Program-made: the position numbers and the translations under genes
Part shown: in pieces, positions 5,347 to 60,782 of the stretch
How the letters are laid out: the number at the start of each line of letters is the position of its first letter
Numbering within the stretch: the first letter of the stretch is position 1
Assembly (NCBI GenBank): GCA_964634875.1
Contig: CAZWKA010000002.1
Span: 79,590-143,589, forward strand
Reading direction: 5' to 3'
From: an uncultured Gammaproteobacteria bacterium
Lineage (GTDB): Bacteria; Patescibacteriota; Patescibacteriia; Magasanikbacterales; GWA2-37-8
DNA length: 64,000 nucleotides
The notes under the pieces: generated by a model
Told to the model about the DNA's origin: nothing
Database searches by the model: none
Seen by the model: the letters and a program-made list of their open reading frames with translations, nothing else

Positions 5347-5401
5347 AAGATAGTTACCCGAGGGATTATACTAAGAAACTAAAAAAATTCAAGGTTTTGC
5401 T

Positions 5402-20325: not shown

Positions 20326-20369
20326 TATTTTTTATACTTTCCTTGTCAGCGTGACTGGTTTTTGATACG

Positions 20370-21128
20370 ATGTCGCTATCTTGTTTATCTATTTCAACTA
20401 TGGAATCTAGCCGGCCCGACATCTCCATTGTGATCCTCTGTTACCGCTCCGAAGACTTTGCACCGATTTTTATTCAGGAGGTCGAGAACAGCCTTTCCAA
20501 GACCAACCTTACGTACGAGCTCGTGTTAGTTGCTAATTTTTTTCTCAATCCAGAAAAAATTGATCGAACCGCCAAAATTGTTACGGAACTAGCCAAGGAT
20601 AACCCCAGACTCATTGTAGTGGCCAAAGAAAAACAGGGAATGATGGGGTGGGACATGAGAACAGGTCTGGATGCTGCAAACGGCAATACCATTGCCGTAA
20701 TAGATGGGGACGGACAAATGCCTCCGGAAGATATTATTAAAGTTTATCGCGCACTTAACAGCGGGCAATTTGCAGTCGCAAAAACTTATCGCGACCAACG
20801 TTTTGATGGTGCCAAACGCCGCATTATTTCAAAAGTCTACAACCTTTTGCTCAAATCATTGTTCCCTAAAGTTACAGTATGCGACGTTAATTCTAAACCA
20901 AAAATCTTTACACGTGAGGCGCTCCAGAAACTCAACCTTACCTCAGACGACTGGTTTATTGATGCCGAAATTATAATCCGTGCCAGCTATCTCAACCTAC
21001 CAATTAATGAGATCGCTACCCAGTTTCACCCCAATAAGCATCGAAAATCTTTTATTCGCCCATCAGCTATACTAGAATTTTTAAAAAACTTAGTCCGCTA
21101 TCGATTGAAGATGAGCTTTAGTAAATAA
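20370..21128 (+). CDS. GT2 glycosyltransferase, polyprenyl-phosphate sugar synthase-like (GtrB/DPM1-like)
   Basis: GT-A fold with ISIVILCY and DGDGQ (DXD) motifs. The small 252-aa size is typical of GtrB-type enzymes. Confidence 0.65.
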   Translation: MSLSCLSISTMESSRPDISIVILCYRSEDFAPIFIQEVENSLSKTNLTYELVLVANFFLNPEKIDRTAKIVTELAKDNPRLIVVAKEKQGMMGWDMRTGLDAANGNTIAVIDGDGQMPPEDIIKVYRALNSGQFAVAKTYRDQRFDGAKRRIISKVYNLLLKSLFPKVTVCDVNSKPKIFTREALQKLNLTSDDWFIDAEIIIRASYLNLPINEIATQFHPNKHRKSFIRPSAILEFLKNLVRYRLKMSFSK

Positions 21129-22899
21129 TTTGATACAAAAACAAATTATTATGAGTGTAGATTAACTTCTTATTTGCAATGAAGGAAAGATCCCATTCTG
21201 GATGGGCGGCACGATCCCAAACAATATAGTTTGTACCATATTTCTTTAAAATACTTATAATCCCCTCCGGATTATTTATTTTTTTGTACTTTTCAACTAA
21301 ATCTCCTAAAATCACCTTACGTCGCTCTAAAAGCTCGGGATCATTTATGGCTATCCGTCGCAAATAATCATAATAGTCAAAACCAGAACGATACCCCTCG
21401 ATCTGTTTGTATTGAGTTTTATAATATGATCCTTCAATTTTACCAACCATATACTTGTGTACTGATTCCTCTATATTATCTCTAAAGTTCTTATTTAAAT
21501 AATGAAAAACGAAAAAACCTTCTTCAAAGCGCTCTAAAGGCGTGTTGGTAAGAGCCGAGTCGCTATGCCAGAATAAATCATGATTAGTATAAATGGTTAT
21601 GAGATACCCGCTGTAATTATCATTTGCCAAGACAACACTTTGCTCGGGCACTGTGTTTAAAATATCAAGAATAGGCCGATACTCTTGAATATCCTGTGTC
21701 GGACCAATTGATGGCAGAAATGAACGGTACTGACCAACAGCAGTATTTAAAAAAACTACCAGTGTAACCCCAGCAAGCAGCAGCTCTCGCGCCCGCTCTT
21801 TAGCCACAAACTGCCAAAGTAAATAAAAATTAACGATAATACCAAGGGGAACGATAAAATACCAATAATAATGACCGATTTGGAGCGATTTACCTGTAAT
21901 AACCTGCTGGTTAAGCGCAACCCATCCAGTGAGAATTATCCCCAAAAGTAACCACTGGTGTTTATTTACCTTCTTGAGAATGATAAAAATAAAAAACCAG
22001 AGCGCTAAAGACACCGCTCCTATCTTACTAAAGATTGGCTGCCGAGTATGACTTGACCAATGGTAGTAGTCCGCCTGCTCTCCAGCGGGAGAAAGAAAAA
22101 ATTTACTCATGGTAAAAAGTTGGTAAGAACCCAATAGAAGCCCTACGCCTGTAATAAGAACGATATGCTTAACAAATTGCCAATCGCGCCGATATAAACA
22201 AATAAGGAATAAAATTCCGTTAAGCGCCAAGGCAAAAGTCCACGCAAAAAAATAAATATAAAATATGATTCCAAAAGTAATGGCGGCAAACAAAATAGCT
22301 ATGCGCTTTCTGGTTATGAAACTCCGGACCAAAGCGTTAAGATAAATAAAAAAGAAGAAAAAACTGGTAAACGGTATCATGGTTCGACCGTACATATTAT
22401 AGTCACTGTAAAAAAGGGTTTTATTATAGACGATATGATACCCGCCCACTATAAATAAAGCAGTCAGGGCAGAGAGTCGTCGGTCGCCTGACAATTGGTA
22501 AACTACTGCATACATGAGAATAATAATCGCCCAGACAATAAAAAAGGTGTAGATGTGTATAAGCAGTACGACATCGATATTTTGACTGATTCCGAGTATT
22601 GTAAACGGCGCTAGCAAAATTTTTTCTCCATACATGAAATAAAGATCTTCCTTGTCTTTACCCTCACGCAATAACGTATTACCCAACGGTTTTTTTTCAG
22701 CAACTTCTTTAACGCGCACCATGTAAATCTGGGCGTCCGAAGGAAAACGAGCTAGATTAATTTTTTGATACGTATCCTTGGTTGCGAGCGGAAAAATAAT
22801 TACTGGAAAAATAATCAAAAATGCCAAAAAAGCACCTGTGACACCAATAAACCAATGTTCTACAAATAAATTTTTAATACGAGCAAAAAATAGTAGCAT
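21118..22899 (-). CDS. Large polytopic membrane protein, putative GT-C-type glycosyltransferase
   Basis: 593 aa with about 12 hydrophobic helices in the N-terminal two thirds, then a roughly 200-aa soluble C-terminal domain. It is adjacent to a GtrB-like GT2. Confidence 0.4.
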   Translation of the reverse strand: MLLFFARIKNLFVEHWFIGVTGAFLAFLIIFPVIIFPLATKDTYQKINLARFPSDAQIYMVRVKEVAEKKPLGNTLLREGKDKEDLYFMYGEKILLAPFTILGISQNIDVVLLIHIYTFFIVWAIIILMYAVVYQLSGDRRLSALTALFIVGGYHIVYNKTLFYSDYNMYGRTMIPFTSFFFFFIYLNALVRSFITRKRIAILFAAITFGIIFYIYFFAWTFALALNGILFLICLYRRDWQFVKHIVLITGVGLLLGSYQLFTMSKFFLSPAGEQADYYHWSSHTRQPIFSKIGAVSLALWFFIFIILKKVNKHQWLLLGIILTGWVALNQQVITGKSLQIGHYYWYFIVPLGIIVNFYLLWQFVAKERARELLLAGVTLVVFLNTAVGQYRSFLPSIGPTQDIQEYRPILDILNTVPEQSVVLANDNYSGYLITIYTNHDLFWHSDSALTNTPLERFEEGFFVFHYLNKNFRDNIEESVHKYMVGKIEGSYYKTQYKQIEGYRSGFDYYDYLRRIAINDPELLERRKVILGDLVEKYKKINNPEGIISILKKYGTNYIVWDRAAHPEWDLSFIANKKLIYTHNNLFLYQIIY

Positions 22900-22904
22900 A
22901 TATC

Positions 22905-23585
22905 TTATTTGTCATGTTTTTGTACCAGCAGATGAAACGTATTAAAGTAGAGCGAGCGGACAAATACTTTATACACTGGGCGAAGCAGCCAGTGTAACCT
23001 CGGAAAAAGTTGTCGGAGCTTTGCTTCTCGTATATCCGCGACACTAAAACCGCATTTTTTCAGGAGCTCACACGCTCTGGTATATGTAAAATAATGCATA
23101 CCTCCGAGCGTTTGACGTCCAGCAACGCCGTCTTCTTTGCTTTTACCAAGAAGAATCAACAAACCATCAGCCCACCGACGAGGCAGCCAGTTAATGCCCC
23201 ACATATGGTAATGGTAATCATACACGCCAAATCGATTGTGAAAACTAATATACGCATATCCCCCCACTTTTAGCACACGAAACATTTCACGCAGAACTTC
23301 TGAAGGGTTTTCCACATGCTCAGTAACCTCGGAGCAATTCAAGAAGTCAAAGGAGTCGTTCTCAAACGGCAGTCTTTCAGCAACACCTTCTTGAAGATGC
23401 GCAGCGACTTTTTCTAAATGCGCTCGCTCTTGAGCCTCCCGGACATATTCTGGGTTAATTTCAATACCAAAAACATCATATCCCAGCGCTGCCATAGCAC
23501 AGACAAATTTTCCCTTGCCAGAACCGACATCTAAAACCTTTCCTGAAGGGGGAATAAATTGAGCACAATAACGGGGATGGCTCAT
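22905..23585 (-). CDS. Class I SAM-dependent methyltransferase
   Basis: Motif I VLDVGSGKG and post-I acidic residues. 226 aa. Confidence 0.7.
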   Translation of the reverse strand: MSHPRYCAQFIPPSGKVLDVGSGKGKFVCAMAALGYDVFGIEINPEYVREAQERAHLEKVAAHLQEGVAERLPFENDSFDFLNCSEVTEHVENPSEVLREMFRVLKVGGYAYISFHNRFGVYDYHYHMWGINWLPRRWADGLLILLGKSKEDGVAGRQTLGGMHYFTYTRACELLKKCGFSVADIREAKLRQLFPRLHWLLRPVYKVFVRSLYFNTFHLLVQKHDK

Positions 23586-23594
23586 AGCTATAAA

Positions 23595-24317
23595 CTAAGT
23601 ATATAGTCCTTTCCAATAATTAAGTTTCATTTCCCAAAGCTCCTTCAAAGAAGAAAAAACTGCTTGGAAAACCTTTACTCGCGAGTCGGTGTCGTGGCGC
23701 CAAGAAACTGCCATCTGTCGAATTGTAATACCATTAAGGTGGGCAATGTACAAAAGTTCTGTATCAAAACCCCAGCGATTAATCTGAGCCTTAGAAAATA
23801 TAACTTTTGCTGCCGCGCTAGAAAAGCATTTAAAACCACAGGTAAAGTCAGTTACCCCGGGAACAAGTAGGTTTGAAAGAAGAGTAAAACCTTGTCCTAA
23901 AAAAACTCGTATATGCGATTCGCTTTTCGTTATCTCTGAATCTTGTAAACGACGGCTCCCAATTACCACCTGATCTTTTGGCTTTAAAAAAGTAACTAAA
24001 TAATTAAATTCAATCAGAGGTGTCGCAAGGTCTATGTCAAAAAAAACAATCCATTTTCCTTGTGCTGCTTTCGTGCCCTGCCTAATAGCATACCCCTTAC
24101 CTTGGTTGTCGGGATAACTTACAATTTGAAACGAATAGGTGTTTTGATACTTTTTAAGCAACTCCTCGGTAGCGTCAGTTGAACCGTCATTTACAAAAAT
24201 AATCTCAATTTTTTGTTGTGCCTGACTAAAAAACCCGAAGATTTCAGCAATATTCTCATTAATTCGCTTGACTTCATTAAAGACTGGAATAACGATAGAA
24301 AACACAACTGTTTCCAT
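23595..24317 (-). CDS. GT2 glycosyltransferase (polyprenyl-phosphate sugar synthase-like)
   Basis: FSIVIPVFNE ... FVNDGSTDAT ... DIDLATP motifs of the GT-A/GT2 family. 240 aa. Confidence 0.75.
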   Translation of the reverse strand: METVVFSIVIPVFNEVKRINENIAEIFGFFSQAQQKIEIIFVNDGSTDATEELLKKYQNTYSFQIVSYPDNQGKGYAIRQGTKAAQGKWIVFFDIDLATPLIEFNYLVTFLKPKDQVVIGSRRLQDSEITKSESHIRVFLGQGFTLLSNLLVPGVTDFTCGFKCFSSAAAKVIFSKAQINRWGFDTELLYIAHLNGITIRQMAVSWRHDTDSRVKVFQAVFSSLKELWEMKLNYWKGLYT

Positions 24318-24329
24318 AAAAGTTCCTAG

Positions 24330-25055
24330 TTATTTTTTTTGATAAACCCCCATCAGGGAGACGCCGAAAGGCAGGTTTATATATGGGAGCAGAAAAACTT
24401 CTGTATTGAAAATATAATAAAAAGGAGCATTGAAGGCAGGCATTCTTTCAAAAGAATCCTTGTCCGGTAGACCCAAGTATCGAATAGCTAGGCGCATGAG
24501 TGCGACCAACGGAAAAAGGATGATATTAAAATAACTCACTTTTAGCTCATTCCAACCGCCTTCAAATAAGCCTCTCAGCATTTTTTGATTATACCGTCTT
24601 TGGTGCAGAAGATACTCATCGTGCTTTGACCATAAGAACGAAAAGGCGGGCACAAAAGCGATAAAGACACCACCCTTTTTGAGAACCCGCTGTATTTCAA
24701 CGACAGCGCCCTGATCGTCTTTAAGATGCTCGAGAACATCAAGCGCGATAACGAGATCAAAAGTAGCATCAGCAAAAGGGAGGTGGTTTGCATCACCCAA
24801 ACGCAAATCAGTAAGACCTTTTTCCTTACAAAAGGAAATAGCATGGGGAGAATTGTCAAGCGAAGTAACCGTGCCAAATTTTTCTAACGTCCGAGAGTTG
24901 AGACCGGTGCCACAACCAATATCTAAAATTTTTAGATCACCTTGTTTAAAGGGAAAAAATTTTTTGACCAGCATAACCAGTAATTTGGTTCTCACACGAA
25001 ACCACCAATGTTTTTTTTCTACTTTATAAATTACCTGATAGGCTTCTTGTTGCAT
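24330..25055 (-). CDS. Class I SAM-dependent methyltransferase
   Basis: ILDIGCGTG motif I; DVLEHL. 241 aa. Confidence 0.7.
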   Translation of the reverse strand: MQQEAYQVIYKVEKKHWWFRVRTKLLVMLVKKFFPFKQGDLKILDIGCGTGLNSRTLEKFGTVTSLDNSPHAISFCKEKGLTDLRLGDANHLPFADATFDLVIALDVLEHLKDDQGAVVEIQRVLKKGGVFIAFVPAFSFLWSKHDEYLLHQRRYNQKMLRGLFEGGWNELKVSYFNIILFPLVALMRLAIRYLGLPDKDSFERMPAFNAPFYYIFNTEVFLLPYINLPFGVSLMGVYQKK

Positions 25056-25061
25056 ATACTG

Positions 25062-26552
25062 TTACCAAAAAGTATAAAAAGCGACCTGGACTGTCATTAT
25101 CTGCAAGAACAATAACATTAGGATGGCAGAAAAGGATTGTTCGTCTTCACCTTCTAGCAAGCTACTACCAAAATGGATAAAGAAGGGTGCGATGAAAAGC
25201 CAAATTCGACCCACTTCGCCCTGAAATATACCAATAATAAGGAAAAAAAACAAGCTTATTGCTCCACAAGTAAACCACTTACTACGTCGTATAAAACTTT
25301 GGGGTAAACTCGTTACAAAAATGTACACGAGCGGTATCCCGAGATAGAAAAGAAACTCTAAAACATTCATTAAAAAATATGAGCTATACGTTATGACTGA
25401 GGCAAAATTACTCTCCACAATCTCGTTATTATGTCCATAAGCAATAAAAAAATTATGGACTATTGAATACCCACTCCCCTTCCAGAGCGCAACAAAAAAA
25501 AGCACGAACACAAAAACTGTACAAACTACCCGAATTAAAAAAATCTTTCTGGCAGGTTTTTCTGCATCGGAATAAAGGCAATAGAGCAAATATACAAAAC
25601 AGGGAGCTAACAGAGCGAACAAAAAATTAGAAAAAAATGAGTACGCTACGAAGCACCCACCCAGCAGAGCCAAGGGTAGATTATTTTTCCAACCCCAATA
25701 GCACGCCCCGAGTGACAGCCAGACCAGACCGACAAATAGCCCCTCCATTGAAGTGGCAGAAAAAAGGACCAGGCTCGGTAAAAAAATAAGAACCATCGCA
25801 ATCCTTTTTGCGCGAGCCACACCTGCCTCAGCCTTAACCAGAAAATAAGTGACTAGGGGCACAATTCCAGCCGTCATGACTAGTAAAATGGCTAAGCCAA
25901 GATTGCCCACATGAAAGAGTTCTTGCCAAAAATATAATGCTAAAGGATATCCGGGTGGATGTATTCTGACGTGGACAGGTAAAACAGGCAGCAATGAAAT
26001 AAAATCGTGTAAAAAACTAAATGTTCCCTTAATAAAGGGGAGTGCGCCAGTATACTCCCAATATGTCCTGGTAAGAGAGTCCACGATGCTCAACAACCCA
26101 TCCCTAACCCCGGCCACACTTAACGCTAGTGCAACAAAAACAAACCAAATAACAAACAAAAACATACGCTCTGAGAGCGCTTCTATCTTGGAACGAAAAT
26201 AGAAAAAAGCCGAAAAGATTCCAATGGGCAGTAGAAACCATCCAAACCCCTTAATGCGCGGCGAGGGAAGACCGTAAAAAAACCAACGATCGCCCAGATA
26301 ATCCTTATAAAAATGGTGTACACCAAGTTTAGCAAGAATAAAAACCCCAAGAATCACTACTGTGGCTAAAAATAAATGGCGCAATCTCTTATCGCTTCCA
26401 AAGGACTTCCAGTACCACATACCAAAAAATATCCAGAGTACTACGAGGCCGATGAGCCCACCTAGAATAAAAGGTATTTTATCGGACCAAGCCGGGTCAT
26501 ATCCTTGACCTGAAACTTTTTCGATTAAGCGGATGAGAAAAGCATTGTTCAT
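25062..26552 (-). CDS. Polytopic membrane protein, putative GT-C glycosyltransferase or polymerase-like
   Basis: 496 aa, mostly hydrophobic helices (about 12 or more). It lies in a glycosyltransferase cluster next to GT2, GT4 and methyltransferase genes. Confidence 0.35.
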   Translation of the reverse strand: MNNAFLIRLIEKVSGQGYDPAWSDKIPFILGGLIGLVVLWIFFGMWYWKSFGSDKRLRHLFLATVVILGVFILAKLGVHHFYKDYLGDRWFFYGLPSPRIKGFGWFLLPIGIFSAFFYFRSKIEALSERMFLFVIWFVFVALALSVAGVRDGLLSIVDSLTRTYWEYTGALPFIKGTFSFLHDFISLLPVLPVHVRIHPPGYPLALYFWQELFHVGNLGLAILLVMTAGIVPLVTYFLVKAEAGVARAKRIAMVLIFLPSLVLFSATSMEGLFVGLVWLSLGACYWGWKNNLPLALLGGCFVAYSFFSNFLFALLAPCFVYLLYCLYSDAEKPARKIFLIRVVCTVFVFVLFFVALWKGSGYSIVHNFFIAYGHNNEIVESNFASVITYSSYFLMNVLEFLFYLGIPLVYIFVTSLPQSFIRRSKWFTCGAISLFFFLIIGIFQGEVGRIWLFIAPFFIHFGSSLLEGEDEQSFSAILMLLFLQIMTVQVAFYTFW

Positions 26553-27688: not shown

Positions 27689-27701
27689 ATTTTCAGCATA
27701 T

Positions 27702-28367: not shown

Positions 28368-28375
28368 AGAGATAA

Positions 28376-30232
28376 TTAATCCTTAAAAAATTCCTGCTGC
28401 CATAGTTGCCACATGACTATCGCCCAAATACTGTTTAAATTATACCGTTTACCACTGAGATGGTCAGCCCACATTTTTTGGACGCCTTGGCGATTAAAAA
28501 ATGCTTCATCGAGGTTTCCAGGAGCAATAATTTCGGCCACAGTATTTTTGAGGTCACCCCGGAGCCATTTAGCCATAGGTGTAAACCACCCTCGCTTCTC
28601 TTGGTTAAGGATATGCGGAGGAATATAGGGCAAAATCGCTTCGCGCCAAATTGATTTACCTTGAAAATTTTTGGGGCGATTGTTCAAAAGCGAAATTTTC
28701 CACTTTGTTGGGATACGGTAACTAAGTTCGACGAGGCGTCGATCAAGAATAGGTACCCGCTCTTCCAAACCAAAAGCCATCGTCATTTTGTCAGTACGTA
28801 AAAGCGACTCGTCGACCAGCCAGCTTTGGCGATCAATATTCATTGACTGCTTCTCAACATCTGACTGTATCCCAGCTGCAAAAAACTGTTGGTTAAAATA
28901 ATCTTCCATAACTGACCGGTCACCAAACTCAGGATTAAACACCTCGCGCACATGTGCCTCGGACTGGGCTAGAAAGGCCAGAATACGCCTACTACCTGGG
29001 GGCAGGCCGAGCTTAGTAGCCAAGGTGCCTTTCCCCAAGGCTCCCAGAGCACCTTCAGCGGCTCTACGCAGCGTTTTTGGCGACTTTTGGTACTGGGTAA
29101 GAAGATAGCTGTAATAATAGCGTGGATAGCCCCCGAAGAGCTCGTCTGCCCCGTCCCCACCTAAGACAACCGCGACTTGTTTTTTGGCCTCACGGCTCAA
29201 CAGAAAAATTGCGGCGGCGGTCGGGTTAAAGTTGGGCTCGTCTAGATGCCATGCGATCTTGGGCAAATTATCGCGCACATCCTTAGCTGAAATACGGAGT
29301 TCGTGGTGGTCAGTGCCGTACCAACGCGCTGTTTTCCGAGCAAGCTCAAAATCAGCGTTGAATTTTCCATTCTCCGGACCAACATCAAAACCAACAGAAA
29401 AAGTAGCTATTTTGCTGGAAAGATATTTTTTGGCAGCACCGAGCACTGCTGTTGAATCAAGCCCACCACTTAAGAAGATGCCAACCGGACGATCGGAAAT
29501 AAGTTGGCGCCTGACGGCATCATCAAAAAGTGTCTTTACCGAGTCGGTTGCAGTAGTACGCGAAGTGAGATTGGAAAAATCGCTGACCTGCCAATAGCGT
29601 TCGAGTGTCAATGTTCCATTTTTAAATATACCCCGATGCGCTGCTGGAAGTTTATAAATACCGTCAAATAAAGTTAAGGGCTCGGGAACATAGAGGAGGT
29701 TAAAGAAAAAATGGGCAGCGCGGTGACTGACCTTACGTTCAATGCCATGAGCTAAAAGCCCTTTTATTTCCGAAGAAAAAATCAGCTGCCCGCGGTGCTC
29801 GACATAATAAAAAGGCTTAATTCCCAGCTGATCACGGGCAATAAATAATTCTTGCCCTGCTGCATCCCAGATCGCAAAGGCAAAAATACCATTTAATTTT
29901 TCAACACACGCCGAACCATATTCTTGATAGGCATACAAAATGACTTCGGTATCACTTTCCGAAAAAAAAGTATATTTTTTTTCAAGCTCCTTTTTTAATT
30001 CCTGAAAATTATAAATTTCACCATTAAACACGATTGAATAGCGTCCGGAGCGGTCGTGCATGGGTTGCGCTGCATGCTCGGACAGGTCAATAATAGCAAG
30101 ACGGTTATGGCCAAATGAAATATTTTCGCCGCACCAAAAATCCGTGGCATCAGGGCCGCGGTGGCGAGTAACTTGGTTCATTTTCTTAACCAAATCCGGA
30201 TTGTGGAAAGTAAAACCGTTAATGCCGCACAT
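28376..30232 (-). CDS. asnB: Asparagine synthase (glutamine-hydrolysing)-family amidotransferase (AsnB/WbpS-like)
   Basis: N-terminal MCGI Ntn-GATase start and an SGGLDS PP-loop. The 618-aa size is typical. Confidence 0.8.
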   Translation of the reverse strand: MCGINGFTFHNPDLVKKMNQVTRHRGPDATDFWCGENISFGHNRLAIIDLSEHAAQPMHDRSGRYSIVFNGEIYNFQELKKELEKKYTFFSESDTEVILYAYQEYGSACVEKLNGIFAFAIWDAAGQELFIARDQLGIKPFYYVEHRGQLIFSSEIKGLLAHGIERKVSHRAAHFFFNLLYVPEPLTLFDGIYKLPAAHRGIFKNGTLTLERYWQVSDFSNLTSRTTATDSVKTLFDDAVRRQLISDRPVGIFLSGGLDSTAVLGAAKKYLSSKIATFSVGFDVGPENGKFNADFELARKTARWYGTDHHELRISAKDVRDNLPKIAWHLDEPNFNPTAAAIFLLSREAKKQVAVVLGGDGADELFGGYPRYYYSYLLTQYQKSPKTLRRAAEGALGALGKGTLATKLGLPPGSRRILAFLAQSEAHVREVFNPEFGDRSVMEDYFNQQFFAAGIQSDVEKQSMNIDRQSWLVDESLLRTDKMTMAFGLEERVPILDRRLVELSYRIPTKWKISLLNNRPKNFQGKSIWREAILPYIPPHILNQEKRGWFTPMAKWLRGDLKNTVAEIIAPGNLDEAFFNRQGVQKMWADHLSGKRYNLNSIWAIVMWQLWQQEFFKD

Positions 30233-30950
30233 AAAAATTTTGCCAAATCTTTAGCCGTATTTTAAGTATATCGACGAGCATCAAAAACGTATCCGTAACG
30301 ATGCGCACACTACTCTCTTTACGATGGTTTAGTACAACCGGAAAATCGCGCAAGGCTAGCTTATTCTGCCGAGCGATTACGAAAAGCTCAATATCAAAAG
30401 CGAAGCGGTCGATAGTTGAATACTTAAGAACCAACTCTACTAAAGGACGAGTGAGGAACTTGATACCGCATTGTGTGTCTTTAATCCCTCCCACCACAGC
30501 TTGCCGGACAACGGTTGAAAAAAAAGATCGGCCAAACTGTCGCAAAAGGCCATAACCGTGCTCAGCAAAAGATTTTGGATTGGTTCGGGAGCCATAGAAG
30601 CAGGAAACTATTGGATCAGCCTTTGAAGCAGCAAGCAGCTCGCCAAAAATAGCTACACCATACGGCAGGTCAGCATCGGTAAATATAACTGCATCGCCGG
30701 TGCTTGCCCGCAGCCCTTCGCGTATTGCGGCTCCTTTGCCTTGATTGGCTTCAAAGTTGATCACGCGGCACAGTGCTTGCTCCTGCCAGACGAGCAAATG
30801 TTCTCGCGTAGCATCAGTACTACCATCATTAACCACAACAACTTCCACAGCTACGGAGGCCTGCTTAACCCAATCAAAAATGCGTCCCAAAGATTGGTCG
30901 ATGAAAGCGGCTCCGTTGAAAATAGGGATAATGATAGAAAGCTCAGCCAT
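30219..30950 (-). CDS. GT2 glycosyltransferase (polyprenyl-phosphate sugar synthase-like)
   Basis: LSIIIPIFN ... VVVNDGSTDAT ... FTDADL motifs. 243 aa. Confidence 0.75.
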   Translation of the reverse strand: MAELSIIIPIFNGAAFIDQSLGRIFDWVKQASVAVEVVVVNDGSTDATREHLLVWQEQALCRVINFEANQGKGAAIREGLRASTGDAVIFTDADLPYGVAIFGELLAASKADPIVSCFYGSRTNPKSFAEHGYGLLRQFGRSFFSTVVRQAVVGGIKDTQCGIKFLTRPLVELVLKYSTIDRFAFDIELFVIARQNKLALRDFPVVLNHRKESSVRIVTDTFLMLVDILKIRLKIWQNFYVRH

Positions 30951-30952
30951 AC

Positions 30953-32407: not shown

Positions 32408-32409
32408 AC

Positions 32410-33762: not shown

Positions 33763-34708
33763 AGGTAATCATCATCTCAACGAGTTCCTTAAACGAAGTA
33801 CGCGGCATCCAGCCCATTTTTTTAATTGCTTGGTTTGAACCTTTCATTTCTTTGATCTCGTCTTTTCTGATAAATTCCTTCTTTTGGATTATTCTATTTT
33901 TCCACACTTTTACACCAGCAACTCGAAAGGCTTCAGCGGCGAAATCCGCAAGTGAGCGGGTGATGCCGGTGCAGATAACTGCGTCCGTTGGTTTTTGCTG
34001 CTGGAGCATCAACCACATTGCTTCAACATAATCGCCAGCAAAACCCCAGTCCCGCCGTACCGACAAATCCCCCACTTCGATTCTGGCTGCCTCACCCATG
34101 GCAATAGCTACGACCCCCTGGCAAATTTTTTTAGTAACAAAATTCGCCTGACGCAGCGGCGATTCATGGTTGAATAAAATACCATTTACTGCATACGTCC
34201 CATAGTGTTCGCGAGCAATATGCACACCCCAATGCGCTGCGGCTTTAGACAGGGCATAGGGGTTGGGCGGCTCAAAACGATACGAACGCTCGGTAATACT
34301 TTTTTCACTATTACCATACATTTGGGCGCTTGAAGGATTGAAAAAGCGGGTTGCCGGACTTAATAGTCGAATATTTTCCAAAATAGCCATCGTGGCATTG
34401 AAATTAGTCGTCAGTGTCTCGGCGGGTGCTTCCCACGACTGAGTAACGCTTGATTGTCCGGCAAAATTGTACCATTCCCGGGGCTGGTATGTACGTAAAA
34501 TTTTAGCAATTTTTTTCTGGTCATCAATCGAACCCTTTACCAGAATCACATCCGATAAAACATCCAGGTACAGCAGGCGCTCTAAACTTTTTTTGGTGGT
34601 GGAACGAGCCAAACCAACAACCGAATACCCTTTTGCAACCAAAAAACGAGCAAGATACGCCCCATCTTGTCCGTCAATACCGGTGATAACGGCAACATTT
34701 TTGGCCAT
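33731..34708 (-). CDS. GDP-mannose 4,6-dehydratase paralog; likely GDP-4-keto-6-deoxy-D-mannose reductase (Rmd-like) or a second Gmd
   Basis: Short-chain dehydrogenase/reductase (SDR) fold (VITGIDGQDGAYLA; YALSK catalytic pair). It is homologous to the adjacent canonical Gmd but diverged. Confidence 0.6.
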   Translation of the reverse strand: MAKNVAVITGIDGQDGAYLARFLVAKGYSVVGLARSTTKKSLERLLYLDVLSDVILVKGSIDDQKKIAKILRTYQPREWYNFAGQSSVTQSWEAPAETLTTNFNATMAILENIRLLSPATRFFNPSSAQMYGNSEKSITERSYRFEPPNPYALSKAAAHWGVHIAREHYGTYAVNGILFNHESPLRQANFVTKKICQGVVAIAMGEAARIEVGDLSVRRDWGFAGDYVEAMWLMLQQQKPTDAVICTGITRSLADFAAEAFRVAGVKVWKNRIIQKKEFIRKDEIKEMKGSNQAIKKMGWMPRTSFKELVEMMITYEFEQLKKSR

Positions 34709-34731
34709 AGATACTTGCGAAATCTTATAAC

Positions 34732-35724
34732 TTAAAGGGTGATACCCACCTCAGCACAGTCATTTATTACCATAATTTTTACTAATTCTTTAAAGCTCGT
34801 TGTAGGTTGCCAGCCTAATTTTTGGCGGGCTTTAGTAGCGTCACCGAGCAGGCGGTCAACTTCCGTTGGACGGAAATATTTTGCGTCTACGACAACATGG
34901 TCTTCCCAGTTCAGTCCTGCAATTGCAAATGCTTCACGACAGAATTCACGGACAGTATGCGTTTCACCCGTGGCGATAACATAGTCATCCGGGGCCGACT
35001 GCTGGAGCATGAGCCACATTGCTTCAACATAATCTTTAGCGTAACCCCAGTCACGCTCAGCATCTAGATTTCCTAAGTAGAGCTTGTCAGTTTTTTTAAC
35101 CAGGATATCGGCAATGCCTTTGGTAATTTTACGGGTAACAAAGTTTTCCCCGCGGCGAGGCGATTCGTGGTTGAACAAAATACCATTGCAGGCAAAGAGG
35201 CCATAGCTTTCACGGTAATTTACCGTAGAATAGTGGGCAAAAACTTTGGCGGTTGCATAGGGGCTGCGCGGATAGAACGGGGTTGTTTCACGCTGCGGTG
35301 TTTCGAGGACTTTGCCGAACATTTCGCTACTTGAGGCCTGGTAAAATTTAGTCTTTGCCCCATGGTCCCGAAGCCATTCTAAGATACGCACCGCACCAAC
35401 ACCAGCAACGTCAGCGGTATATTCTGGGACGTCAAAACTAATTTTGACGTGGCTTTGGGCAGCCAGGTTGTAAATTTCATCAGGCTGAATCTTGCTGAGC
35501 AAGCGCGCAAGACTGCTGCCATCGGTCATATCGCTGTAATGCAAAAACAAATCACGATCACGGTGTTCGGCGTAGACGTGCTCCAAACGCTCACGGAAAA
35601 CGTTGCTTGAGCGGCGCACAAGACCATGCACTTCGTAGCCTTTAGAAAGCAGTAATTCAGTAAGATAACTCCCATCCTGGCCAGTGATACCCGTAATTAA
35701 AGCCTTTTTCTTCGGTTCGGTCAT
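34732..35724 (-). CDS. gmd: GDP-mannose 4,6-dehydratase
   Basis: [24 protein letters not shown] catalytic motif, NHESPRRG. 330 aa; textbook Gmd. Confidence 0.85.
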
Positions 35725-35725
35725 A

Positions 35726-36424
35726 TTAGTCTAAAACATTAAATTTAAAGATAGACCAGATCGCGCTGACGCCATCTTTCCACCCAATTTTCTTACCCTC
35801 AGCATACGTACGGCCATAGTAGGAAATTCCTACCTCATACAAACGTAATTTAGCTTGGGCGACCCGGGCCGCAATTTCCGGTTCAATATTAAAACGGTTG
35901 GCAGTAAGTTTGGGTAAAATTTGTGCCAAAGCAGCTTTGGTGAACATTTTATAACAAGTTTCCATGTCCGTGAGGTTGAGGTCAGTAAAGACATTGGAGA
36001 AAAAGGTCAATATTCTATTGCCGATCGAATGCCAAAAAAATAAAATGCGGTGAGGGTTGCCACCCATGAAACGCGAACCAAAGACAACATCAGCCCGGCC
36101 CGTTACCAGCGGCGCCAAGAGCAGGCGGTATTCTTCCGGGTCATACTCAAGATCAGCGTCCTGGATAACGATATAGTCCCCAGTTGCCAAGGCCATGCCT
36201 TGGCGGATCGCCGCGCCCTTGCCTTTGTTTTCAGGTTGTAAATGAATTTTATAATCTAACCTCGTGAATGTCGCCAAAAGGTCGCGGGTTCCGTCTTTTG
36301 ACCCATCATCAACGATCACAATCTCTTTTTCGCAGTTAGGGAGAGTAACCCGATCGATTGCTTCCAAAATTTCGTGGATGGTTTTTACTTCGTTGTACAC
36401 GGGCATGACGATAGACAGCTTCAT
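35726..36424 (-). CDS. GT2 glycosyltransferase (DPM1/GtrB-like polyprenyl-phosphate sugar synthase)
   Basis: [10 protein letters not shown] ... VDDGSKDGT ... QDADLEYDP motifs. 232 aa. Confidence 0.75.
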
Positions 36425-40847: not shown

Positions 40848-40849
40848 AC

Positions 40850-41992: not shown

Positions 41993-42004
41993 ATCTAGTA
42001 GAGT

Positions 42005-43690
42005 TTAGGGGGTTTGAGTAACATGATACACCTTAAAAGCCACCTCTCCATCGTCACGGTAAATAACTACAGGCATAATATTAAGATCAATAATTTTTTT
42101 CTCCATATCCGCTGCGAGAGTTGAGGCGGCTGTTACGGAATCTAGTGGGGCACCATCTTCTGCCTTGATAAAATAAAAACTGCGGATCCCGAGCTGGTTT
42201 AACAGGTAATCTTCGCTTATCGAAATAACCGGTAGATTATTATAGAAACGGCGGCGTTCAAACAACCATACGCGCGAAAACCAGTTAATGCGGTCGTCAA
42301 AAATAATAACTGTAGCCTGTTTAAGGTTCTTAGCCATTATTTCTAAGGTAGTTTCCAAGAGGTACGGTTCTAAATTTTTTTGTTTGATTTTGATATCGCC
42401 ATACGGATCAAACCGGGTCAGCTCAGGGTCAGCTTCGACAAGCTTGTCTAAATACGCATCAAGTTGCGCAACACCAAAATTTTGAGAAGCAGCGGCACTT
42501 TTAGCCAAACCAACCGAACCATAGTGGCGAGGCATTACGTGACTATTTAAAGTAAAAAATCCTAAGTATATCCCAAAAATAATTGAGGAAGCTAAAAATA
42601 TATTTTTTCCTCGTACTGCGTGCCAGGCAATCAACCGCTCTCGGACATCAACTGCGGCCAGAGCAATAAGCGGTGCAAACAAAACCGCATACATTGAAAG
42701 GACATACCCCTGCTGCCCAATAAAAAATTGTTGGATTGTAAAAAAGAGGATTAATGACAAATACAAAGTAAGGCGGCGCTTACTCCAGAGTGTAAAAATA
42801 ATTGCGGCCAGCGCTAACGCTAAAAAGGGCCACGAAATAAAATGAGCTAGATTGATGAAAATCTGGACAAAACCAAAAGGTGAAAAGCCGGAGACCCCGG
42901 CCAAATGCCAGGGGCTATCTTGACCGAAAAGACGTGCGAACTGGAGAGAAAAATGTCCAGTTGCTTCGAACATCAGAAGGTTATAAAAAATTACCGGCAA
43001 GAGAACAACAACACTTAACCCAAGAGCTGCATACAGTTTAGCTTCGCGAAGCAGCTGACGATTATTACAAGCGACATAGAGCAGAAGACCTGGAATTAAA
43101 AAGAGGGTAGTAAATTTAACCGAAAGAGCCAAACCAAAAGCAAATCCAAACTTCCACCAGCTGGCTCGGTTTGTTTCAAACTGGGTAAAATAATACAAGC
43201 AGAGCGCGATACAGAACATGACTCCGCTTTCGAGGTACGCTACCCGTCCAGCCCAAATAAAATGCGCATTGAGGACCAAAAAGAGCGTGGCACCAAGGGC
43301 AGCCCGAGGTTCTTGACGCTTCACCACATGGTAAAGAACAAAAATAGTTCCCAGAGCAAACAAAACAGAAGGAAGCTTGGCGAAGAAACCATTGGCATTT
43401 ATTGACAAAAACAGATGCTGGACTAAAAATAGTGGCTTTGGATGGTCGTGGAATGAAAGCCCAGCCCACCGTGGTACAATATCAAACCACTGGATCGGCG
43501 TCGACTGAAACTGACCATCGCCAAACATAAAATCGACGGGCCCAATGGCTCGCACACTGTAATGAGCGTCGTCGCCCACCATATCGACATGGGTCACGCG
43601 AAACAAAAGTACAGCGGCTACCACCAGGATAATCGCGAGGAGCGGACGAGGCAGCTTTTCGACGGAAGAAGAAAGCTTGCGGCCTGACAT
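42005..43690 (-). CDS. GT-C membrane glycosyltransferase, PMT/ArnT family
   Basis: 561 aa with a polytopic N-terminal half and an acidic first loop (VGDDAHYSVRAIG), then a roughly 190-aa soluble C-terminal domain. Confidence 0.55.
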   Translation of the reverse strand: MSGRKLSSSVEKLPRPLLAIILVVAAVLLFRVTHVDMVGDDAHYSVRAIGPVDFMFGDGQFQSTPIQWFDIVPRWAGLSFHDHPKPLFLVQHLFLSINANGFFAKLPSVLFALGTIFVLYHVVKRQEPRAALGATLFLVLNAHFIWAGRVAYLESGVMFCIALCLYYFTQFETNRASWWKFGFAFGLALSVKFTTLFLIPGLLLYVACNNRQLLREAKLYAALGLSVVVLLPVIFYNLLMFEATGHFSLQFARLFGQDSPWHLAGVSGFSPFGFVQIFINLAHFISWPFLALALAAIIFTLWSKRRLTLYLSLILFFTIQQFFIGQQGYVLSMYAVLFAPLIALAAVDVRERLIAWHAVRGKNIFLASSIIFGIYLGFFTLNSHVMPRHYGSVGLAKSAAASQNFGVAQLDAYLDKLVEADPELTRFDPYGDIKIKQKNLEPYLLETTLEIMAKNLKQATVIIFDDRINWFSRVWLFERRRFYNNLPVISISEDYLLNQLGIRSFYFIKAEDGAPLDSVTAASTLAADMEKKIIDLNIMPVVIYRDDGEVAFKVYHVTQTP

Positions 43691-60774: not shown

Positions 60775-60782
60775 TAAAAAAT

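Follow-up and report, generated by a model that had tools for sequence, protein, structure and literature searches.

The 64-kb window, which is the whole stretch of Patescibacteria (CPR) DNA that was analysed, has four small genes of the GT2 class and five genes for polytopic membrane proteins at positions 20370–43690. This interval probably represents the extracytoplasmic decoration part of an approximately 50-kb surface-glycoconjugate locus. The reading frames listed by the initial annotation at 20370, 23595, 30219 and 35726 (here GT2_1 to GT2_4) and at 21118, 25062, 30953, 32410 and 42005 (M1, M2, M3, M4 and M5) are all present. Sequence comparisons support a multiplied extracytoplasmic glycosylation system of the three-component type, with activities that are predicted. 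On the cytoplasmic side of the membrane, the four peripheral GT2 enzymes, which are of the type of DPM1, GtrB and ArnC, would each load polyprenyl phosphate with one sugar taken from a nucleotide sugar. The lipid-linked sugar would cross the membrane by a flippase encoded outside the 64-kb window, and on the outer side an acceptor would be glycosylated from such lipid-linked sugars by M1–M5, GT-C-fold enzymes that are mutually dissimilar. The acceptor glycan backbone is probably a cytoplasmic product of eight GT4 enzymes and would then be handled by two Wzy_C-TPR proteins. The proposed mechanism fits the three-component paradigm (PMC11127046, PMC8035078). Lipid-sugar loading followed by transfer outside the cell is a known mechanism that is unusually multiplied here, and the locus also includes a large GT-C family, that of M1, without Pfam or NCBIfam annotation. 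Catalytic activities, loop orientation, donor sugars and acceptor are predicted from the observed domains, folds, first-loop acidic residues, gene fusions and synteny.

GT2_1 (20370–21128, plus strand) is a 252 aa DPM1/ArnC-like protein with the motif DGD at residues 112–114. The other three genes are on the minus strand: GT2_2 (23595–24317; 240 aa, DPM1/GtrB-like, DID at 94–96), GT2_3 (30219–30950; 243 aa, GtrB/ArnC-like, DAD at 92–94) and GT2_4 (35726–36424; 232 aa, AglJ/PpgS/DPM1-like, DAD at 89–91). Scores to Pfam Glycos_transf_2 are 54, 94, 74 and 114 bits, respectively, all above the gathering threshold. All four have a DxD motif within 232–252 aa, no transmembrane (TM) segment and no processive-synthase architecture. 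A family profile of 240 positions, consisting of these four sequences and 14 related Patescibacteria GT2s, was compared with solved GT2s in the PDB. It matches PfDPMS at 8e-40 (positions 3–232 of 240), GtrB at 5e-33 (positions 3–183) and ArnC at 9e-33 (positions 3–230). Every other solved GT2 aligns to profile position ~176 at most, the majority to ~100–150. By this sequence comparison, the solved polyprenyl-phosphate glycosyltransferases are the best match of the profile, and no other solved GT2 covers as much of its length. Individually, GT2_1 has PfDPMS, ArnC and GtrB as seven of its eight PDB sequence matches, with PfDPMS aligned over residues 17–243. The best matches of GT2_2 are PfDPMS (4e-12) and GtrB (1e-11), and those of GT2_3 are GtrB (2.7e-11) and ArnC (1.9e-8), with PfDPMS aligned over residues 3–216; GT2_4 matches PfDPMS best (1.3e-15). 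GT2_4 also matches the NCBIfam models AglJ (115 bits, residues 3–228) and PpgS (residues 5–219), both below cutoff. All four are predicted to be polyprenyl-phosphate sugar synthases, in agreement with the DPM1/GtrB type first proposed for them. Their length, the lack of TM segments and of a processive architecture, and the profile match to PfDPMS, ArnC and GtrB speak against processive synthases.

A different reading is that these are ordinary GT2s that extend a polyprenyl-diphosphate-linked repeat, and that the polytopic proteins either have no catalytic role or are oligosaccharyltransferases or ligases that draw on diphosphate-linked oligosaccharide donors. The absence of TM helices from the four proteins is in its favor, as GtrB and ArnC have C-terminal TM helices, and none of the four reaches the NCBIfam equivalog cutoff of characterised polyprenyl-phosphate synthases. 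The best and longest profile match, to solved polyprenyl-phosphate glycosyltransferases, is evidence to the contrary, and this reading is improbable.

The membrane proteins all have 9–10 hydrophobic segments. M3 (30953–32407, minus strand) is a 484 aa GT-C protein of the PMT_2 type in which TM1 is closely followed by the motif W-F-D45-E46-G; it has nine hydrophobic segments, a net positive N-terminus and a C-terminal soluble domain. It passes Pfam PMT_2 marginally (27.9 bits, cutoff 26.1), and its DE pair is invariant across six aligned homologues. M4 (32410–33762, minus strand) is a 450 aa PMT_2-type GT-C protein (56 bits) with the motif V-D43-A-x-A-Y47, and D43 is invariant in four homologues. 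M5 (42005–43690, minus strand) is 561 aa and of the PMT/GT39 type; its motif is G-D40-D41-x2-Y44-x2-R47, and the C-terminal domain is soluble. It scores 38.7 bits to Pfam PMT (cutoff 22.7); PMT and/or PMT_2 are found in 22 of 22 homologues, among which D40 and R47 are invariant. As single sequences, M3, M4 and M5 show no PDB match.

M1 (21118–22899, minus strand) is 593 aa and has no Pfam or NCBIfam match. Its AlphaFold (AF2) model (pLDDT 92.4) displays a GT-C fold of about 11 helices and a C-terminal alpha/beta domain. The Foldseek matches in the PDB at ranks 1–29 are all GT-C enzymes, with E down to 5e-7 and moderate TM values of 0.45–0.54 for the best twenty. The best are the C-mannosyltransferase DPY19 and oligosaccharyltransferases. 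Among the nearest folds are STT3, PglB and AglB, whose donors are diphosphate-linked oligosaccharides, a point for such donors here, but the M1 sequence has no WWDxG-type oligosaccharyltransferase motif at the start of the soluble domain. Loop 1 has the motif D55-x3-Y59-x2-R62 as well as D85 and E92. Among 42 family sequences, position 55 is Asp in 37, D85 is conserved in 38 and position 92 is acidic in all 42. An hhalign comparison of M1 with the M5/PMT family gives 81% probability. Based on the model, M1 is probably a GT-C-fold glycosyltransferase.

M2 (25062–26552, minus strand) is 496 aa and also has no Pfam or NCBIfam match, and 5 of 20 members of its family match PMT_2 (best 2e-8). Its AF2 model (pLDDT 89.1) is an all-helical GT-C fold of a divergent PMT_2 relative with an extra N-terminal helix. 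Foldseek ranks 1–25 in the PDB are all GT-C, with AftA first at 5.6e-4 and moderate TM values of 0.3–0.43. The GT-C enzymes matched first by the M1 and M2 models are DPY19, STT3/PglB, AftA, ArnT, Emb, ALG3/6/9 and Pmt. M2 has D88 after TM2 (Asp in 18 and Glu in 2 of 20 sequences) and an invariant HPPGY at 198–202. A conserved Asp or Glu thus lies shortly after the first outward-going helix in each of the M1–M5 families, where the initial annotation had counted three proteins with an acidic first loop. Such a residue constitutes the defining GT-C motif (PMC6801728). The GT-C assignment is borne out by HMM scores above Pfam PMT_2/PMT gathering for M3, M4 and M5 and by the models that match GT-C first for M1 and M2. 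These same results rule out Wzy- or YfhO-like proteins, and the Wzy_C genes are separate (45875 and 49870).

GT2_1–GT2_4 are beside M1–M4 or in tight strings with them, as was originally noted; M5, at the head of a series of five GT4 genes, has no GT2 next to it. One string consists of M2, a methyltransferase gene (MT_b), GT2_2, a second methyltransferase gene (MT_a) and M1; the 3' end of M1 overlaps the convergent GT2_1 by 11 bp. The other string is GT2_4, Gmd, a Gmd paralogue, M4, M3 and, directly downstream of M3, GT2_3. The likely pairs would be GT2_1 and/or GT2_2 with M1 and perhaps M2, GT2_3 with M3, and GT2_4 with M4. GT2_1 is the predicted partner of M1, and GT2_4 the likely partner of M4. 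Gmd and its paralogue separate GT2_4 from M4 here; an M4 homologue directly adjoins a GT2_4-like gene in loci L063, L023, L038 and L022, and the Gmd pair is absent from the syntenic L063. The M1 family has ~2,200 cluster representatives, and relatives found in genomes are almost all from Patescibacteria MAGs. A survey of 59 genome loci with 68 M1-family ORFs shows a small GT2 within 3 kb of 36 of these ORFs. The order GT2_4, M3, GT2_3, M2, MT_b, GT2_2, M1 is found again in Giovannonibacteria contig L020, and the cassette recurs in the same order in other Patescibacteria genomes (L020, L002 and L063), which indicates that the arrangement is not due to chance. The locus can be termed unusually elaborate in comparison with most bacteria, but the cassette recurs within Patescibacteria.

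M1 homologues are also found as fusion proteins. An N-terminal GT2 is present in P0024, P0037, P0045, P0055, P0110, P0111, P0176, P0210 and P0240. The GT2 domain of P0037 is 61% identical to GT2_1 over 238 aa, and those of P0024 (L007) and P0045 (L019) are of the GT2_2 type. P0196 has a GtrA_DPMS_TM domain (PF04138) at the N-terminus of an M1 homologue, and P0136 has a SAM methyltransferase in that position. MT_b-like domains are fused to an M1-like protein in L048 (8725–11364) and to a GtrA-like protein in L018 (7910–9181), the latter beside GT2_1-like and M1-like genes. These fusions independently tie together synthase, flippase and GT-C enzyme, and a cytoplasmic N-terminal partner would place loop 1 of the M1 family outside the membrane. 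Twelve of the 59 loci have GtrA-like ORFs no further than 10 kb away (two of the 12 overlap on one contig). The 64-kb window itself encodes no flippase or exporter of the GtrA/SMR, MATE/Wzx or ABC types, so that an essential step is not accounted for locally. The lack of a GtrA-type flippase in the window favors ordinary GT2s, whose proximity to GT-C genes would be mere co-membership of a glycan locus. The GtrA::M1 fusion and GT2::M1 fusions in several lineages make this improbable, as such fusions would make little sense if synthase, flippase and GT-C did not share one lipid-monophosphate sugar. MT_a (22905–23585) and MT_b (24330–25055), both on the minus strand, are SAM-dependent methyltransferases (Pfam Methyltransf_11, 89 and 88 bits), and MT_a-like genes directly adjoin M1 homologues in many loci. 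This conserved partner suggests that the lipid-linked sugar may be methylated.

The preferred reading, decoration by lipid-linked sugars, leaves the acceptor to be considered. Direct modification of protein by some of the GT-Cs, above all M5 and M1, from polyprenyl-phosphate sugars is a sub-variant that differs solely in the acceptor. It would resemble actinobacterial Pmt, eukaryotic PMT/DPY19 and streptococcal Pgf, unlike polysaccharide decoration. The obvious candidate, possibly an S-layer or surface glycoprotein, is a secreted protein of 1241 aa (52267–55992, minus strand) with a signal anchor at residues 7–25 and no Pfam or NCBIfam match. It is 13.1% Thr, 11.2% Ser (24% Ser+Thr) and 6.8% Asn. 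It had been placed 4 kb downstream; its distance is 4.3 kb from the Wzy_C-TPR gene at 45875–47926 and 8.6 kb from where the interval ends. The match of M5 to PMT, with a homologue named GT39 by NCBI, and the closeness in fold of M1 to DPY19 and STT3/PglB are consistent with a protein acceptor. Protein-acting GT-Cs carry C-terminal soluble domains, as M1, M3 and M5 do, and each GT2 has PgfS among its three best NCBIfam matches. By proximity alone, the GT-Cs may be linked to the 1241 aa protein, the C-terminal 646 aa of which are 76% identical to a protein at the equivalent position in L063. However, conservation of gene order in L063 counts for little because the two genomes are rather closely related, and no homologue is present within 10 kb in any of the 59 M1-family loci. 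Pfam finds no MIR or PMT_4TMC domain, and the presence of eight GT4s in the cytoplasm and of two Wzy_C proteins favors a lipid-linked oligo- or polysaccharide as the GT-C target. Protein as the acceptor is rather unlikely.

Alternatively, the GT-Cs add side-chain sugars after export to a wall polysaccharide, a teichoic-acid-like polymer or a lipoglycan, a reading that is tentative but quite possible. This resembles Gtr O-antigen glucosylation, teichoic-acid modification by CsbB/YfhO or GtlA/GtlB, and the rhamnan side chains of lactococci and streptococci. Eight GT4-type genes are present, where about nine had been counted; the ninth is a Capsule_synth-like GT. The Wzy_C-TPR genes (45875–47926 and 49870–52137, minus strand; Wzy_C 72 and 75 bits, plus TPR) probably encode a ligase, polymerase or O-oligosaccharyltransferase for the backbone glycan. 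Genes for a TPR protein and an RF-1-domain protein are between them. In eight loci an M1 homologue has Wzy_C-TPR genes within 10 kb, and the arrangement in L063 is the same. The gene classes for methylation, O-acylation, amidation and sulfation are all present by family match, as first annotated: an MBOAT and an AlgX-like protein (O-acylation), AsnB-like and WbuX (amidation), and ATP sulfurylase, APS kinase, a CysQ-like protein and a sulfotransferase (sulfation). Genes for O-acylation, sulfation and amidation are typical of polysaccharide loci. Gmd (34732–35724, minus strand) is an NCBIfam gmd equivalog (536 bits, cutoff 415), and its paralogue (33731–34708, minus strand; 270 bits, below the cutoff of 415) is possibly Rmd. 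The two probably supply a GDP-6-deoxyhexose, where GDP-Rha supply had been proposed. The proposed UDP-Xyl supply corresponds to an ambiguous SDR gene at 43700–44650.

The GC content drops in the segment from GT2_1 to M2 (0.39–0.40 vs 0.44–0.46). The M1 homologues found are at most 48% identical, in comparison with 59% for the best M5 homologue, from the L063 genome; together with the low GC this fits a mobile decoration cassette. M1 paralogues are in tandem in L011, L013, L014 and L020. Against a polymer acceptor, neither a polymer exporter nor a priming phosphoglycosyltransferase is encoded in the 64-kb window, and a chemically characterised wall polymer from these organisms was not found in the literature searched. 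Side-chain glycosylation of this kind has precedent in monoderm bacteria (PMC8035078). If exported glycopolymers are decorated in this way, the multiple cassettes would provide for surface variation.

The segment at 20370-43690 has 21 tightly packed ORFs, all on the minus strand except the first, and from 20370 to 47926 there is no intergenic gap of more than 40 bp. Four small GT2 glycosyltransferase genes and five genes for polytopic membrane proteins, reported here in the initial annotation, are present exactly where it placed them, as determined from ORFs, Pfam matches and hydrophobic segments. The GT2 genes are GT2_1 (20370-21128, plus strand, 252 aa), GT2_2 (23595-24317, 240 aa), GT2_3 (30219-30950, 243 aa) and GT2_4 (35726-36424, 232 aa), the last three on the minus strand. 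The membrane proteins, all encoded on the minus strand and each with 9-10 hydrophobic segments, are M1 (21118-22899, 593 aa), M2 (25062-26552, 496 aa), M3 (30953-32407, 484 aa), M4 (32410-33762, 450 aa) and M5 (42005-43690, 561 aa). The minus-strand order begins with M5, five GT4 genes, GT2_4, the GDP-sugar dehydratase gene Gmd (34732-35724), its paralogue (33731-34708), M4, M3 and GT2_3. It continues with an AsnB-like amidotransferase, a methyltransferase, a GT4, M2, the SAM-dependent methyltransferase gene MT_b (24330-25055), GT2_2, a second such gene, MT_a (22905-23585), and M1. GT2_1 is the last gene of a separate plus-strand string, after a cupin, a DegT aminotransferase, an MBOAT and an AlgX-like protein gene, and its end is convergent with that of M1, with an 11 bp overlap.

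Elsewhere in the window are sulfate activation genes and a sulfotransferase gene, WbuX/HisH/HisF-type amidotransferase genes and a PseF-like cytidylyltransferase gene. Two membrane proteins carry Wzy_C and TPR domains (45875-47926 and 49870-52137), and a secreted 1241-aa Thr/Ser-rich protein (52267-55992, minus strand; Ser+Thr 24%) is a candidate surface glycoprotein. The cytoplasmic GT4 genes reported initially as about nine are present, but their count is eight; the SDR gene behind the reported UDP-Xyl supply exists (43700-44650), but the UDP-Xyl assignment is ambiguous.

Other ORFs in the window show unusual features. A 751-aa ORF (10001-12256, minus strand) is an unusual fusion of a pyruvate kinase barrel (residues 3-320), PUA_2 and ATP sulfurylase (527-738); its neighbours encode an APS kinase, a CysQ-like phosphatase, an Na/H-exchanger-family transporter and a sulfotransferase. 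The 678-aa product of 13803-15839 (minus strand) is a fusion of a GT4 (residues 213-366) and an FkbM-type methyltransferase domain (500-654). The 130-aa ORF at 15944-16336 (plus strand) matches Cupin_2 and, at 39 bits and above gathering, Polysacc_synt_C; the latter looks spurious, in that it is a membrane-domain model and the ORF has no hydrophobic segments. The product is probably a cupin-type sugar isomerase adjoining the DegT aminotransferase, and a similar cupin gene is found in locus L001 of a relative. A 134-aa RF-1-domain (ArfB-like) gene (48601-49005, minus strand) lies between the two Wzy_C-TPR genes beside the gene of a 232-aa TPR protein, an arrangement kept in the related locus L063 (RF-1-domain gene at 5192-5596 there). 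Two minus-strand genes directly upstream of the 1241-aa protein gene encode an ECF-type sigma factor (57570-58151) and a single-pass membrane protein with DUF5667 (56220-57563). The DUF5667 protein is possibly an anti-sigma factor, and the pair could regulate the surface-protein gene. At 60001-64000 the GC content rises from about 0.44 to 0.53-0.55, and ORFs in this region have no family match except an edge-truncated S-adenosylmethionine synthetase (63390-63998).

All four GT2s score above Pfam gathering for PF00535 (Glycos_transf_2), with 54, 94, 74 and 114 bits for GT2_1 to GT2_4, and each has a DxD motif (DGD112, DID94, DAD92 and DAD89, respectively). Pairwise identities between GT2_2, GT2_3 and GT2_4 are 32-34%, and GT2_1 is further off. 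Single-sequence PDB searches give PfDPMS (5mlz), GtrB (5ekp) and ArnC as the closest solved relatives; seven of the eight GT2_1 matches are one of these three. A profile (A4, 240 positions) was made from the four GT2s and 14 related small GT2s from Patescibacteria loci. It matches PfDPMS at 8e-40 over positions 3-232, ArnC at 9e-33 over 3-230 and GtrB at 5e-33 over 3-183. Other solved GT2s (chondroitin synthase, SpsA, GpgS, PglI etc.) stop by about position 176, and mostly at about 100-150. With A4, the similarity to solved polyprenyl-phosphate glycosyltransferases reaches beyond the generic N-terminal nucleotide-binding half.

No hydrophobic segment is present in any of the four GT2s that could represent the C-terminal TM helices of GtrB, ArnC and PfDPMS, and a hydrophobic-moment scan for C-terminal interface helices was uninformative, its top windows being in the Rossmann core. 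The TM-less state matches the subtype of human DPM1, PpgS and Ppm1 D2, which needs a membrane partner. None of the four reaches the NCBIfam equivalog cutoffs for ArnC, PgfS, AglJ, PpgS or the Halo dolichyl-phosphate hexose transferase, and therefore none is an ortholog of a characterised enzyme. The top NCBIfam score is that of GT2_4 with AglJ, 115 bits (cutoff 325) over nearly the full length of GT2_4; PpgS, PgfS and ArnC are also among the matches, far below their cutoffs. Processive synthases are ruled out, as the proteins are short and have no membrane domain. The A4 matches, the lengths of 232-252 aa and the lack of a membrane domain bear out the initial reading of the GT2s, which are predicted to be of the polyprenyl-phosphate sugar synthase kind.

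M1-M5 show no similarity to each other in pairwise BLAST comparisons, and their TM helix counts lie within the 8-13 typical of GT-C proteins; for M1 and M2, helix maps of AF2 models agree with the hydrophobic-segment counts. M3, M4 and M5 were assigned to GT-C by Pfam PMT_2 or PMT matches above gathering, and M1 and M2 by predicted structures. M4 matches PMT_2 with 56 bits and M5 matches PMT (PF02366) with 38.7 bits (cutoff 22.7). M3 passes PMT_2 gathering marginally (27.9 bits) and has a sub-threshold PMT score of 17.4 bits; M4, M1 and M2 have no PMT match. PMT and/or PMT_2 is found in 22/22 M5 homologues, one of which is named GT39 by NCBI. Single-sequence PDB searches with M3, M4 and M5 found nothing.

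M1 has no match in Pfam or NCBIfam, and the M1- and M2-family profiles gave nothing significant against PDB sequences. The AlphaFold model of M1 has a pLDDT of 92.4 and a pTM of 0.91. When it is compared with the PDB by Foldseek, ranks 1-29 are all GT-C proteins (DPY19, STT3/PglB/AglB, AftA, ArnT, Emb, ALG3 and Pmt1), with E down to 5e-7 and TM-scores of 0.45-0.54 for the top twenty. Profile-profile comparison also gives a match, with 81% probability, between residues 84-259 of M1 and the PMT core of the M5 family. An N-oligosaccharyltransferase was rejected as the main reading of M1: a conserved W-D lies at the extreme C-terminus, near residue 562, and not at the WWDxG position, and the gene fusions found in M1 homologues also argue for monophosphate-sugar donors. 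M2 itself has no Pfam or NCBIfam match, but 5/20 members of its family match PMT_2 (best 2e-8), and the family is a distant PMT_2 relative. The M2 model has a pLDDT of 89.1, and Foldseek ranks 1-25 in the PDB are all GT-C, with AftA at 5.6e-4 followed by STT3, ArnT, ALG9, ALG3, Pmt4 and ALG6. No MIR or PMT_4TMC domain is found by Pfam in M1-M5 at E <= 0.01. There is likewise no Pfam match to Wzy_C or YfhO in M1-M5, and Wzy_C is seen only in the genes at 45875-47926 and 49870-52137. The Pfam matches of M3-M5 and the Foldseek results for M1 and M2 thus agree with the initial assignment to GT-C rather than to Wzy or YfhO, and M1-M5 are GT-C enzymes of five different families.

GT-C enzymes are marked by an acidic motif of DxD, DD or DE type in their first outward loop, a short way past TM1 (PMC6801728). 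The acidic loop-1 motif noted initially is found in a conserved form in all five M families, in alignments of 4-42 sequences. The M1 motif is D55-x3-Y59-x2-R62, where D55 is Asp in 37/42 sequences, with D85 and E92 in addition. In M2 the residue is D88, acidic in 20/20 sequences, with an invariant HPPGY at 198-202. M3 has W-F-D45-E46-G (D45-E46 kept in 6/6), M4 has V-D43-A-x-A-Y47 (D43 kept in 4/4), and M5 has G-D40-D41-x2-Y44-x2-R47, with D40 and R47 invariant in 20 sequences. M2 has an extra N-terminal helix, and D88 comes after TM2; the TM1-TM2 loop is strongly positive (+4/-1 from the sequence), so that D88 would follow an outward-going second helix. In M3, M4 and M5 the N-terminus carries a net positive charge. 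In M1 homologues, N-terminal cytoplasmic GT2 or methyltransferase domains imply an N-in orientation with loop 1 outside. The acidic loops of M1-M5 are accordingly predicted to face the outside of the membrane.

The gene fusions are the strongest new evidence tying the components together. A HMMER search with the M1 profile finds 2,226 cluster representatives at E <= 1e-3, 1,530 at <= 1e-10 and 568 at <= 1e-30. Four M1 homologues of 727-853 aa (P0024, P0037, P0045 and P0055) have an N-terminal GT2 domain. GT2_1 is 61% identical to that of P0037 over 238 aa, and the fused domains of P0024 (locus L007) and P0045 (L019) are of the GT2_2 type. Among the best 150 of the 2,226, N-terminal GT2 extensions are present in P0055, P0110, P0111, P0176, P0210 and P0240. 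The same 150 include one fusion of a SAM methyltransferase to M1 (P0136) and one of GtrA_DPMS_TM (PF04138) to M1 (P0196), each the only one of its kind there. A synthase and a flippase of the classical three-component kind are thus each found in covalent linkage with GT-Cs of the M1 family. Such fusions of comparable GT2 domains, and of a GtrA domain, are indirect support for the formation of polyprenyl-monophosphate sugars.

Related fusions occur in other loci. At 7050-9203 of L046, a GT2_1-type domain is fused to a different, PMT_2-like domain of eight TM helices. L006 (4366-6132, on the same Giovannonibacteria contig as L020, 18731-20497) joins an RmlB-like 4,6-dehydratase/epimerase to a DPM1-like GT2 (residues 351-566), which suggests that the lipid carrier receives a 6-deoxy or keto sugar. 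This fusion parallels the adjoining GT2_4 and Gmd genes of the window.

SAM methyltransferases are linked to the M1 family as tightly as the GT2s are. A small GT2 is within 3 kb of 36/68 M1-family ORFs and within 300 bp of 17/68, and a SAM methyltransferase is within 3 kb of 35/68 and within 300 bp of 21/68; these counts, from 59 loci, are lower bounds, as many contigs end early. The methyltransferase is fused to the N-terminus of the GT-C in some genomes and to a GtrA-like domain in others. An MT_b-like domain is joined to an M1-like GT-C at 8725-11364 of L048, and to a GtrA-like domain at 7910-9181 of L018, directly upstream of GT2_1-like and M1-like genes. The adjacency to M1 and the fusions to GT-C or GtrA-like domains are hard to reconcile with action on a soluble nucleotide sugar. 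A four-component route may be put forward tentatively, as a possibility rather than an expectation, in which the GT2 product would be O-methylated by MT_a and/or MT_b while lipid-linked at the cytoplasmic face, exported by a GtrA-type protein and then transferred by M1 to a surface protein or polymer. Enzymes that modify lipid-linked sugars include ArnD, NaxD/LgmC and DprE1/E2.

The M1 relatives are found predominantly in one group of bacteria: 52/59 loci are from MAGs whose names place them in Patescibacteria/CPR lineages (Giovannoni-, Magasanik-, Falkow-, Kaiser-, Doudna-, Nealson-, Peregrini- and 'Saccharibacteria'), 5/59 from third-party assemblies that carry the label 'uncultured Gammaproteobacteria' and 2/59 from ones called just 'bacterium'. 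A GtrA-like ORF is within 10 kb in 12/59 loci, two of which overlap on one contig. In L020 the order is GT2_4, M3, GT2_3, M2, MT_b, GT2_2, M1, M1, and in L002 it is GT2, M3, GT2_3, M2, MT_a, MT_b, M1, GT2_1 and then Wzx. Of the loci found, L063 is the nearest syntenic relative. Its genes comprise one for a 1231-aa surface protein, two Wzy_C-TPR genes that flank TPR-protein and RF-1-domain genes, M5, four GT4s, GT2_4 directly beside M4, AsnB and a methyltransferase; Gmd, the Gmd paralogue, M3 and GT2_3 are absent. These cassette orders, together with tandem M1 paralogues in several genomes, show that the multi-pair arrangement is recurrent and variable in the lineage and not a peculiarity of one genome. 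The best M5 homologue, from the L063 genome, is 59% identical, and no M1 homologue found is more than 48% identical. The GC content of the GT2_1-to-M2 segment (window positions 20001-26000) is 0.39-0.40, compared with 0.44-0.46 in the flanks. This segment could be a laterally exchanged decoration cassette.

The core mechanism is quite probably extracytoplasmic glycosylation of the three-component type, known from the Gtr, Arn, CsbB/YfhO and GT136 systems (PMC11127046, PMC8035078). Each GT2 would load one sugar onto polyprenyl phosphate at the inner membrane face, the lipid-linked sugar would be flipped across the membrane, and the cognate GT-C would transfer it on the outside. What the analysis shows directly is the folds and families of the proteins, their conserved motifs, the fused domains and the gene neighbourhoods; charging, flipping and transfer are inferred. 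GT2_4 is the likely partner of M4, since the two are adjacent in four other genomes. In the window the two are separated by Gmd and its paralogue, a hint that the donor may be a GDP-derived hexose or 6-deoxyhexose. GT2_3 likely pairs with M3, and GT2_1 and/or GT2_2 likely with M1 and possibly also with M2.

The eight GT4s would assemble a lipid-linked backbone, which the Wzy_C-TPR proteins would presumably polymerise or ligate, and this GT4-built glycan is a plausible acceptor of the GT-Cs, at somewhat under even chances. Alternatively, M5 or M1 at least may glycosylate a protein, for which the 1241-aa Thr/Ser-rich secreted protein is a candidate, although we hold this to be rather unlikely. 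The C-terminal half of the 1241-aa protein is 76% identical to the L063 counterpart, where proximity to the locus is also kept, but no homologue is found near any of the 59 M1-family loci.

No dedicated flippase (GtrA/GtcA, SMR or MATE) is found in the 64-kb window by a small multi-TM ORF scan, jackhmmer with GtrA, or Pfam, and no Polysacc_synt/MATE/Wzx protein, ABC exporter or priming transferase is found there either. The flippase and priming functions must be elsewhere in the genome or be carried by unrecognised proteins. The window's only membrane protein without a family assignment is a 283-aa protein with six hydrophobic segments (5402-6253, minus strand), encoded between the sulfotransferase and a HisF-like gene; it has no match in Pfam or NCBIfam even at E = 1. 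That it is the missing transporter or flippase would be a speculative guess.

The system is best filed with the Gtr/Arn/PMT-type multi-component transmembrane glycosylation pathways. As a set, the genes of the locus are not orthologous to those of any characterised system, in view of the unreached equivalog cutoffs, TM-less synthases, lack of a local flippase and lack of MIR/4TMC domains. As in the three-component systems, i.e., GtrA/GtrB/Gtr* O-antigen glucosylation, CsbB/GtcA/YfhO and GtlA/GtlB teichoic-acid glycosylation and GT136 pentofuranose transfer (PMC11127046, PMC8035078), a small synthase-like GT2 adjoins a polytopic GT-C with an acidic loop-1 motif, and in relatives of the locus a GtrA domain is beside or fused to the GT-C. 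Unlike those systems, four synthases and five unrelated GT-Cs are present in one locus, the GT2s do not have the two C-terminal TM helices of GtrB, there is no flippase in the 64-kb window, SAM methyltransferases are conserved and sometimes fused extra partners, and M1 and M2 are without a Pfam/NCBIfam match, the M1 family having no model.

Resemblance to the ArnC/ArnD/ArnT pathway of lipid A aminoarabinose addition consists of ArnC among the best solved matches of the GT2s and ArnT among the fold matches of M1 and M2. The D-x3-Y-x2-R following TM1 in M1, M4 and M5 is, we assume, also similar to the ArnT loop-1 motif. LgmA/LgmC/LgmB and FlmF/NaxD/FlmK are related to Arn, and these pathways alter the sugar on the lipid by deformylation or deacetylation, a precedent for a modifier acting between synthase and GT-C. 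Here the candidate modifier is instead a methyltransferase, and the GT2s score 44-50 bits against an NCBIfam ArnC cutoff of 529. Patescibacteria are generally held to be monoderm; if this organism is, lipid A cannot be the acceptor, unlike in Arn.

Likeness to the PMT/GT39 system (actinobacterial Ppm1 and Pmt) is seen in the Pfam matches above gathering, to PMT for M5 and to PMT_2 for M3 and M4, and in the DE pair of M3, which resembles the PMT loop-1 DE motif. Among the NCBIfam matches of the GT2s, PgfS of the Streptococcus mutans Pgf system (PgfS/PgfM1/PgfE/PgfM2) recurs, and a Ser/Thr-rich secreted protein is close by as candidate acceptor. On the side of differences, no MIR or PMT_4TMC is found, and scores are far under equivalog cutoffs. 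In Haloferax S-layer glycosylation, AglJ and AglD are dolichyl-phosphate hexose synthases, AglR is a flippase, AglP is a methyltransferase acting on the lipid-linked glycan, and AglS and AglB are GT-C. The locus similarly combines lipid-phosphate sugar synthases, a SAM methyltransferase, GT-Cs and a large surface protein, and AglJ is the top NCBIfam match of GT2_4. It differs in its bacterial lineage, in an AglJ score well under cutoff and in that no AglB-type oligosaccharyltransferase motif was identified. PpgS (Rv3631, with Rv3779) and human DPM1 are synthases without TM helices of their own that depend on a membrane partner. The four GT2s are likewise TM-less and about 230-250 aa, and the need for a membrane partner fits the GT2::GT-C fusions of relatives. 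GT2_4 aligns to positions 4-213 of 226 of the PpgS model, but with a score of 57 against a cutoff of 370, and, in place of a small anchor protein, the GT-C itself seems to serve as partner here.

New here are the multiplicity (four synthases with five unrelated GT-Cs), the placing of the large M1 family, found almost only in Patescibacteria, in the GT-C fold, the connection of the M2 family with PMT_2, and the conserved methyltransferase partner. GT-C can now serve as the annotation of the M1 family (about 2,200 cluster representatives at E <= 1e-3, with no Pfam/NCBIfam model), and the GT2, GtrA and methyltransferase domains fused to its members provide a ready-made functional assignment. Methylation of a lipid-linked sugar, if true, would be a new kind of modification in a textbook pathway. 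A large part of bacterial diversity belongs to the Patescibacteria, organisms with genomes of about 1 Mb that spend their lives attached to other cells. To our knowledge almost nothing is known of their surface chemistry, and a literature search on Patescibacteria/CPR with GT-C, S-layer glycosylation or mannosyltransferase found nothing relevant. Here a single glycoconjugate, involving four or five extracytoplasmic glycosylation steps, takes up roughly 50 kb. This investment suggests that a decorated surface is central to the biology of the organism, e.g., in host attachment or phage evasion.
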